From contig JBNRMN010000063.1 of assembly GCA_050309605.1 (NCBI GenBank), forward strand, positions 1 through 64,000: DNA of 64,000 nucleotides. Reading direction: 5' to 3'. Source of the DNA: Anaerohalosphaeraceae bacterium (GTDB lineage: Bacteria; Planctomycetota; Phycisphaerae; Sedimentisphaerales; Anaerohalosphaeraceae). Each line of letters begins with the position of its first letter. The first letter of the stretch is position 1. A program made the position numbers. This document shows, in pieces, positions 6,001-9,000 of this stretch.

Positions 6001-9000
6001 GCCTGCCCTGCCGCGCAGGGGTCCGCGCTGTCCAATCGCACTAAGGAAACAGCAGGCATTCGCTGAAGGCGTCCTGAAAACGTGCCTGGTGGGCGATTTC
6101 GATGTAGCGCATTCGTTGCGCCAGTTGCGAGGCCAACTCGCGTGCGTTGCGGCTCAGCAGGATCATCTGCGCTCCCGCTCCGGCGGCGTTGCCGACGAAG
6201 CGAATCCGCTCAATACCCGGCCCCGGCAGCAGACCCACCCTGACCGCACTTTCGCGGCGGATGTAATTGCCGAACGCCCCGGCCAGCAGAATGCGTTCAA
6301 GCTTATCCTCTTGCACCTCGGCGGCCTGACAGAGCAGTCGAATGCCCGCCCGGATGGCGGCCTTGGCAAGCTGGAACTGGCGAATATCTTTCTGCGTCAG
6401 GACGACCGGACGCGGCGCATCCGGCTCGGACAGGCAAAAGGCCGGTTGTTGATCAGCCGCCATCAGGCGGCGTTTGATCGTTTTCGGCAGCGTCGGCACG
6501 ATTGTTTCGGCCTCGACGAAGCGCCCCGTTTGGTCCACGATTCCCAACTCCAGCAGTACCGCCACGGCGTCGATCAGCCCGCTTCCGCAGATCGATTGCG
6601 CCGCCCGGTCGCCGATGACATCAATATCAATATCGCTGTCGTCGTTGAGCAGGACGCGCTGGATCGCACCGTCTTGAGCGGACGAACCAAACGTGATCCC
6701 TGCGCCTTCCAGTGCCGGCCCGGCGGCGCAGCTGGCTGACCAGAGGTCCTGGCCGACCCGCAGCACCAGTTCTCCGTTGGTGCCGATGTCCACCAGCAGC
6801 GTCGGGCCGTCGGGAAGATCCAGCCCGCAGGCCAGCGCCGCCGCGACCGTATCCGAACCGACAAACCCGGCGATATTTTCAATGGTATAGACCCGCCCGT
6901 CAGGGGCGATAGGCAGATTCAGCGCCTCGGCGGTTCTGGAACAGGCCGTCAGCGAATACGCTCGATAAGGCGACTGTCCCAATGAGGCGACGGGGTAATT
7001 CAGCAGCAGATGGTTCATTGTCGTATTGCCTGCGGCGACGATTTCATAAATCTCAGTCCGCGACACCCCCGCCGCGGCCGTTGCCTGCGCGATCAATTGG
7101 CGCAGACAATCCAGAATGCACTGCTGCAGTTGGCTCGCCCCGTCCGGCTGGTCGGCGTACTGGATGCGGCTGATGACATCGGCGCCGTAACGCGCCTGCG
7201 GATTGGCTGCGGCGACGGCAGCGACTACCTGGCCGGTATTCAAATCAACCAGGTTGACAACCACGGTGGTGGTGCCGATGTCCACGGCCGCGCCGAATAT
7301 TCGGTCGGTCGTGTCGCCGGCTTCCATCGCGATTGCCTGAAAGCACGATTTGGAGCTGCCTTGCGTATGTTCAGTTGACAAAACGGACAACAGCACGGCG
7401 GTCAAGCCGCCATCCCCAACGTTGCGATGCTGCAAGTCCTGGGCGGCCTCTTCCAGACGCTGCTCATCGCTGCCTTCCAGATGCAGGCAGAGATCGGCTT
7501 GGTGCGAGACCGTTTCACAAAAGACGTCGATGCCTTGCCACGGCCCGGGTACAAATACCTTTTTTACGGGTGGATCAAGCGGGACATCTCGACCGATGCC
7601 GTGCTGAAGAATTTGCTGCGTCAAAAACCGGCTTGCCGGCGGCACAAAGACCTCGAGATCGTGGTTGACCCGGGTTTGGCAGGCCAGCACCTCCTTGCCG
7701 TTGGGCATAAGCTGCACTTTGCATTTGCCGCAGCGACCGACCCCGCCGCAGGGACTGTTCAGAATGATCCCCGCCTGTCCGGCGGCCTCCAGCAGGGTTG
7801 CCCCGGCGTGAATGTTAATCACTCGATTATCCGGTGTAAAATGAACCGTGTAATGGGACATTCAATGACTCTCAAGGTAAAAAAGAAAATGCAAAATAAA
7901 GCCATTGCATAGCCTTATTCTGCATTTGTATTTGCCATCTCGGCGTCCCAGACGTGTAAAAACGTCTTTATCCATCCCCTCAAACGCCGATGATTACGTT
8001 ATTTTATGACGGACTTTCCAGCGAGCGCGTCGTTTCTTGCTGCCGATCTTCCGTCTGCGTCTTGGTTTGGCCATTCACATCTCCTGAAATTGGTCTCGAA
8101 ATTCGTTTACTTTGCACCGGTTGAACGGTTATTATAGTAATGGTTTGCGTAATTGCAAGTCGGGGGTGATTTTTTTATTTAAGCAGGAGACAAAACAATG
8201 ATCCAGTGTGTTGATTGCGAATTTTATTCCATGTCGCCGGACGGACGGCGGACATTTCGTTGCGATCCATTTGTGAACATCAAAGAGCCTGAATGTCTTC
8301 AGAAATGGCAGTTACTTCGCCTTGATCTGCTTGTGTCGGGTTTTCAGACGATGTCGATGTTTCAGCAAAAAATGGCTCCGATGCAGGAAAAACTGTTCAA
8401 ATATGTTAAACGCGAATTAGACGACATAGAAGAGGCAGATAGCTGGAAACTGGACGACAGCGATGACGATGACGCGGATGATCCGGATCATCCCGGCTTT
8501 GACACCGGCGGCATGTTTTGAACAGCCGCGTTTTTACGCTAACGGACAGAGACTAAAATGCAATATCGCATTGCTTCAGAGCGTCTGTCTTAATGAATAC
8601 AGCATGAGAAATGGCCGAACAGCAGCTATCAGCAACTTTTCTTAAGCGTTTGATCAAGCGTGAGAACGGTGCGTTTGACGAGCTGGTGCAGCGCTACGCG
8701 GGTCGGTGTTACGGCTATTTTTATCGGCTCTGCGGAAACGCCGAGCAAAGTGAAGAATTTGTCAGCGAGTTATTCGTCAAACTGGTTGAAAAGATAGACA
8801 CCTTTGAAGGCGGTTCGTTTGATAAGTGGCTTTTCACAGTGGCGTCGAATCTGTTTCGGGACCATTTACGTCGCCAATACAGGTATAAACGTCTGCTGGA
8901 CGAGGCCGCCGACCACGAGCGTCGCCGACAGGACGATTCCGCCGAGCAGTCCCGCCAAGAGGCGGCCAATGATCGACTTCAGTGGGCGCTCGAAAAACTC

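Follow-up and report, generated by a model that had tools for sequence, protein, structure and literature searches.

The window analysed here comprises 64,000 nt, positions 1 to 64,000 of contig JBNRMN010000063.1 from an Anaerohalosphaeraceae bacterium (assembly GCA_050309605.1). On its minus strand lies a short ORF which the gene caller had apparently passed over. It encodes a protein of 26 aa, MAKPRRRRKIGSKKRRARWKVRHKIT, in which lysine and arginine make up 54% of the residues and acidic residues are absent. The ORF and the features around it are listed in Table 1.

Table 1. Positions of the small basic ORF, its putative expression signals and its neighbours in the window
Feature	Position	Strand	Remarks
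ORF, small Arg/Lys-rich protein (P0001)	7994..8074	-	26 codons, ATG to TAA; single-copy, conserved
Shine-Dalgarno sequence AGGAG	8081..8085	-	6 nt 5' of the ORF start codon
Sigma-70-type promoter-like site TTGCAA-16-TATAAT	8131..8158	-	10/12 consensus positions; consensus match alone
Intrinsic-terminator-like hairpin, 19 bp, and U-tract	7877..7927	-	-25.1 kcal/mol, fold z -4.13
Divergent neighbour, 107-aa protein without a Pfam family	8198..8521	+	Flank conserved across the order; no demonstrated part in the function
Downstream neighbour, RACo-type ASKHA/2Fe-2S protein	6041..7861	-	Pfam matches on the homologue in L010

The genome-wide survey's note had described a genuine ORF with an RBS, a promoter and a terminator of its own. 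The same elements are found again here, and -10-like hexamers resembling the one in Table 1 lie 56-74 nt 5' of the ORF in many loci of the order. An in-frame ATG-TGA start-stop pair (8075-8080, minus strand) separates the RBS from the true ATG; it is also present in a locus from the same genus (L002) and is not kept across the order. One run contains a lone 257-nt contig, which lies outside the ORF and has no bearing on its expression.

Conservation and selection

The ORF occurs once in its own genome, and a search gives a single strong match in 57 of the 61 genomes of the order; the single-copy conservation reported in the survey is thus borne out. An ORF of 25-27 aa can be read at all 30 of the best order loci (at L004 the length is counted from the second ATG). 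It is preceded by an RBS motif at 29 of the 30, against 6.3% of small ORFs genome-wide. Mean identity among the order loci is 0.73 inside the ORF and drops to 0.37 and 0.26 in the flanks. For 29 distinct sequences from the order pN is 0.128 and pS is 0.788, and pN is far below pS in three subtypes. By these comparative measures the ORF is a real protein-coding gene under strong purifying selection, with the look of a translated one. A chance ORF, an RNA shadow or an opposite-strand shadow could be argued for from one reverse frame in which pN is likewise below pS (0.16/0.54), as happens in shadow frames, but this reading can safely be set aside, given that the reading frame, with its start and stop codons and its RBS, is preserved at 30/30 and 46/46 loci and at 118/120 among the matches listed in a third set, with pN far below pS.

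An unnamed family and its range

On sequence grounds, the ORF is a member of an unnamed family of proteins of 24-36 aa which spans two phyla. Lysine and arginine account for 57% of the residues. The core reads R-R-K-[IVL]-G-x-K-K-R, R(H) comes seven positions later, and within the core R-R-K-x-G-x-x-K-R is invariant in 57/57 members.

Iterated profiles identify carriers in 43 of 251 Planctomycetota genomes, a sample drawn evenly over the phylum, and the distribution is patchy. These 43 were kept from 52 profile rows because they have a short ORF; of the nine that were dropped, seven lack a credible short ORF and two (G147 and G185) lie inside long open frames. All 17 genomes of one taxonomic family (f13) are carriers, and a profile scan found no member in 12 genomes of the same class outside the order. 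In GTDB, a pattern scan gives at least 118 loci with an ORF of 22-38 aa among the 120 matches listed. The Planctomycetota label is borne by 106 of these 120 (NCBI labels, some of which are clearly loose), and the orders represented among them include Pirellulales, Planctomycetales, Gemmatales, Isosphaerales, Tepidisphaerales and Sedimentisphaerales. The earlier statement that the gene is present widely in Planctomycetota is therefore right as to its presence in several groups and wrong as to breadth. Nor is the family confined to this phylum, a point that the survey had missed. Five of the GTDB matches listed belong to a distinct subtype of 33-36 aa, three of them labelled Oligoflexales; in the class to which one of these records belongs, 58 of 61 genomes match the family, and the ORF is present in 46/46 of the Oligoflexia loci read.

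Records labelled Chitinophaga, Alcaligenaceae, Aegiribacteria and Bacillota carry planctomycete-type sequences and were left out of the range; we infer mislabelling or binning error. A Ruminococcus row was rejected as a member as it has no profile match, and two 451-aa 'cluster members' proved to be unrelated transporter-like sequences. Among 218 pattern matches in viral contigs there is no confirmed relative.

In databases, members of the family are named 'hypothetical protein' and often have false N-terminal extensions. The exact sequence of this ORF is not among 15 billion called proteins, which agrees with its having escaped gene calling, and 7 of 10 exact family sequences, this one included, are missing from the called-protein collection. 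A conserved gene of this kind is thus skipped or wrongly extended by annotation pipelines. Searches of Pfam, NCBIfam and PDB again gave no match to the ORF or to the family, in agreement with the survey. No description of the family was found in open-licence papers, and the available portions of bioRxiv 2021.01.31.429008 and PMC10632474 make no mention of such a gene.

Genomic neighbourhood and loss

The divergent 107-aa neighbour is 57-70% identical in the 4/4 order genomes tested, and it is probably the neighbour cluster that is seen at 25/30 order loci. Its sequence contains a CDPF motif as well as an N-terminal CxxC, and its gene lies ahead of an ECF sigma gene. An ECF sigma gene is among the neighbours of the ORF in 22/30 order loci, and the RACo gene flanks it in 19/30 only. 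In one subtype, an argininosuccinate lyase gene is located just downstream in 8/8 loci, all from one family (loci L034-L039, L047, L048 and L056). Neighbours are stable inside lineages and different between them, and in this the gene resembles the bS22 loci examined; those in Oligoflexia are unrelated. Synteny comparison found no neighbour common to the subtypes, to bS22 loci or to ribosomal operons, and thus no hint of function.

Four genomes of the order, among them one that is a single contig, give no match; in these the two genes that flank the ORF elsewhere stand next to each other, with the ORF missing. The gene is dispensable, since it has been cleanly deleted between adjacent flanks in 4/61 genomes of the order. 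In one of these (G052), a promoter-like stretch directly precedes the RACo gene.

Comparison with small proteins of the decoding-centre pocket

The pocket formed by 16S rRNA helices h27, h44 and h45 lies beside the decoding centre. It is occupied by bS22 in actinobacteria, Bacteroidota and Borrelia, by mS38 in mitochondria, and by eL41 in archaea and eukaryotes; in E. coli it is empty. The family was compared with these proteins and with other small basic ribosomal proteins.

The occupants have little sequence likeness to each other; they are 25-37 aa long and 55-65% basic, and the Borrelia gene is missed even by a mycobacterial query (available portions of PMC10085706, PMC12123416, bioRxiv 2023.04.16.537070 and the PMC10618245 supplement). 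Whether they share descent or have converged is debated in the parts of PMC12123416, PMC10085706 and the Borrelia preprint that were available. In M. smegmatis bS22 is non-essential, and h44 is braced via a lysine-phosphate bridge (excerpts of bioRxiv 2023.03.31.535098). In archaeal eL41 the N-terminal peptide is buried and leads into a helix, and no bacterial orthologue was known according to the portions available of the same paper (PMC7005279).

In size and charge the family (24-36 aa, K+R 0.57) is close to bS22 (29-37 aa, K+R 0.58), and it falls within the range of about 30 aa and 55-65% Lys+Arg. The bS22/mS38/Cox24 proteins (PF08213 COX24_C, NF047430; PDB 5o61, 8crx, 7jil, 8fmw, 9i5v) have in common with it a length of about 30 aa, a K+R content of about 0.58, a stand-alone and often unannotated gene, a patchy range and dispensability. 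There is also a register common to both by eye: K followed by a hydrophobic residue, Lys four residues on, and RH near the end. The family differs in having Gly after the hydrophobic residue and Lys for the His of xxHK, in a spacing to RH that is one residue shorter, and in the lack of any HMM or profile match. The His of the bS22 motif K[IVM]xxHK is invariant in 35/35 aligned rows. The Lys four residues past the hydrophobic residue is invariant in the family (57/57) and falls, in this unproven register, at the place of Lys16 of M. smegmatis bS22.

Two bS22 reference sets were used. The actinobacterial type consists of nine planctomycete sequences matching NF047430 and PDB bS22/mS38 chains; the Bacteroidota/spirochaete type, with a motif taken from the accessible part of the PMC10618245 supplement, is represented by 34 of 56 distinct sequences, which match 7jil, 9i5v and 8fmw. 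As a positive control the two subtypes were compared with each other, which gave a hhalign probability of 95%, a semi-global z of 5.9 and a glocal z of 4.1. Against the bS22 profiles, the family reaches 1.1-3.9% with hhalign and z -0.9 to 1.6 in the composition-corrected semi-global test. The likeness to bS22 that had been seen by eye is lost under these controls. In the glocal test, which allows one gap, the whole family scores z 1.1-1.9, the subtype of this order up to 3.1 and Oligoflexia up to 0.6; as controls, reversed profiles score up to 2.7 and decoys 2.3. When the cores of the whole family, of the order and of Planctomycetia are set against bS22 profiles in this test, all nine comparisons share the start register and the one-residue gap. 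A register chosen by hand gives z 2.9, which is post hoc.

None of the 57 family members matches PF08213, as against 15/34 of the Bacteroidota-type bS22 sequences; this test is leaky, with the other 19/34 missing at E<=10 too. The Bacteroidota/spirochaete type is thinly covered by Pfam in general, and the sequence matching PDB 7jil is among the 19 missed. There is likewise no match to NF047430 among the 57. When the genome's 6427 basic small ORFs are ranked by a bS22 HMM, the ORF is 2nd without and 4742nd with correction for composition.

Like bS22, eL41 (eS32, PF05162; the archaeal form has 37 aa) is very basic, 25-37 aa long and found in the same pocket, but 0/57 family members match PF05162. 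Among named ESM clusters, the closest are eL41 (0.86-0.88), PF08213 (0.86-0.87) and bL37 (0.84), all below 0.9 and thus leads only. bL37, bS31/Thx and bL38 are also tiny basic fillers of rRNA cavities which were found late by cryo-EM. In the family there is no match to PF17070 of bS31/Thx; for bL37, a motif of the protein is absent from this genome, and no PDB chain matched.

Models of the short peptides made without RNA (pTM 0.36-0.44) predict coil at residues 1-16 and helix at 17-33 for the family, and helix at 4-24 for bS22, whose mark is a long bent helix along most of its length. The predicted helix of the family thus starts later and takes up the C-terminal half only. The Oligoflexia-subtype model resembles archaeal eL41, in which the buried peptide leads into a helix of 20 residues in the available part of its description. 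Foldseek gave no match with the short model, and no planctomycete ribosome structure was found.

The assignment made in the survey, a ribosomal protein of the bS22/mS38/eL41 type, hence stands in part: size, charge and the single-copy, stand-alone gene fit, and homology to bS22 does not. As judged from profiles, the family cannot be filed as bS22 or eL41, and the only hint of homology, a weak one, comes from the glocal test. It is plausible that the family functions like bS22.

Co-occurrence with bS22 and other ribosomal proteins

Recognisable bS22, of two subtypes, is present in 20/251 planctomycetes which are scattered over the tree (L057-L066, L326-L335); a literature search did not find bS22 in Planctomycetota in print. 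None of these 20 carries the family, none of the 43 carriers has recognisable bS22, and 188/251 have neither. In a sample of the phylum of Oligoflexia, bS22 is found in 2/86 genomes (G311 and G314), both of which are among the 3/61 without the family. In these two, which form one clade (99/99; 28/30 genomes placed), a canonical bS22 gene lies beside pheA (L400, L401). The third genome without the family, G317, has no bS22 either; a carrier with an identical uL2 exists. A combined bS22 profile found no credible hidden ORF in 10 of the 188 genomes with neither protein, nor in five genomes of the order and Oligoflexia that lack the family.

The naive odds of this exclusion are 0.02 and 0.002, with kin counted as independent. 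At family level p is 0.064, and for independent pairs the median p is 0.5. A nine-protein tree of 80 chosen genomes contains five independent pairs, none of which goes against exclusion. The pattern is consistent and unproven; it is not significant once kinship is counted.

The genome itself has no match to bS22, eL41 or Thx. It has bL34 (a weak match) and, by motifs, bL27, bL31, bL32, bL33, bL35, bL36, bS18, bS21 and uS14; since these are present, the ORF is not a disguised copy of any of them. Crude motifs did not find bL28, bS16 or bS20, proteins too long for a peptide of 26 residues to take their place. Replacement of uL30 was considered and rejected, as the family's occurrence does not follow the loss of uL30. 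The gap between uS5 and uL15 is 56-138 nt in the six planctomycete carriers and non-carriers that were resolved, which leaves no room for uL30, and 270-299 nt in Oligoflexia carriers (4/4); 6/16 regions overall could not be resolved. It should be noted that bL34 of planctomycetes is divergent (loci L371-L399): in this genome it lies at C67:12139-12282 (+), below the Pfam cut-off. It was not found in 12/41 genomes, and its reported 'loss' in the phylum may partly be missed detection.

Proposed function and alternatives

The reading we favour, with a probability of about 0.55, is that the ORF encodes a dispensable ribosomal protein of the h27/h44/h45 pocket, the site of bS22, eL41 and mS38. It would be a short, constitutively made protein filling the RNA cavity between the three 16S helices. 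The N-terminal basic stretch may thread into the cavity; the invariant hydrophobic-Gly pair of K[IVL]G would form a bend or a helix start, and the lysines of KKR could form salt bridges to the h44 backbone as Lys16 of bS22 does. The C-terminal helix, ending in RH, might reach 23S rRNA and so provide an extra inter-subunit bridge. As for origin, the protein could have arisen independently, or it could be bS22 that has diverged strongly and become one residue shorter. Its loss in 4/61 genomes of the order fits a non-essential protein, as bS22 is in M. smegmatis. The family is near-universal in Planctomycetia, in this order and in Oligoflexia and has never been seen with bS22, from which a concrete prediction follows for any first map of a planctomycete ribosome. 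The family also offers a natural case of homology versus convergence at this site.

The likeliest competitor, itself improbable, is a lineage-specific ribosomal protein at another rRNA site, either a filler of the bL37/bL38/Thx type or the occupant of an undescribed pocket. Charge, size, conservation and a stand-alone gene with a strong RBS would suit any small ribosomal protein; the failure of bS22 homology, the presence of bL37 among the ESM neighbours and the finding of Thx in 0/41 genomes that agree in size with the Planctomycetota sample also speak for it. Against it stand the lack of co-occurrence with bS22, the absence of a Thx match in the family and the failure to track uL30 loss. Even a protein that binds at another site would constitute a new ribosomal protein family.

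A bolder version of the pocket reading is speculative and rather unlikely. Here the family would not descend from bS22; it would be an independent occupant of the decoding-centre pocket with an eL41-like coil-plus-helix form, would have taken the place of bS22 on several occasions in Planctomycetota and on one in Oligoflexia, and would have moved between the phyla. At its boldest, it would be the missing bacterial relative of eL41.

More doubtful still is a non-ribosomal binder of nucleic acid, such as a protamine-like peptide that condenses the nucleoid or an Sra-type stationary-phase factor associated with ribosomes. Planctomycete nucleoids are condensed, and the highly basic composition without acidic residues would serve such a role. 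However, the invariance of the core suggests a shaped binding site over bulk charge, the family is present in unrelated Oligoflexia and was not found in the 12 same-class genomes outside the order, and another ORF of the genome already encodes a histone-H1-like AKK-repeat protein.

It is very improbable that the ORF is a cis-acting leader peptide by which the downstream gene is regulated according to the supply of arginine or lysine. Runs of Arg codons, the argininosuccinate lyase gene that follows in one subtype and the promoter-like stretch in G052 speak for such a leader, but the downstream genes vary between and within lineages, the flanks are not conserved, and no Rfam family matches the ORF locus at E<=1. 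Synonymous sites are saturated and there is therefore no codon constraint.

The histone-H1-like ORF lies at C95:21689-21844 (+) in the same genome. It has an RBS and encodes a Lys/Ala-repeat protein of 51 aa, a candidate nucleoid protein.
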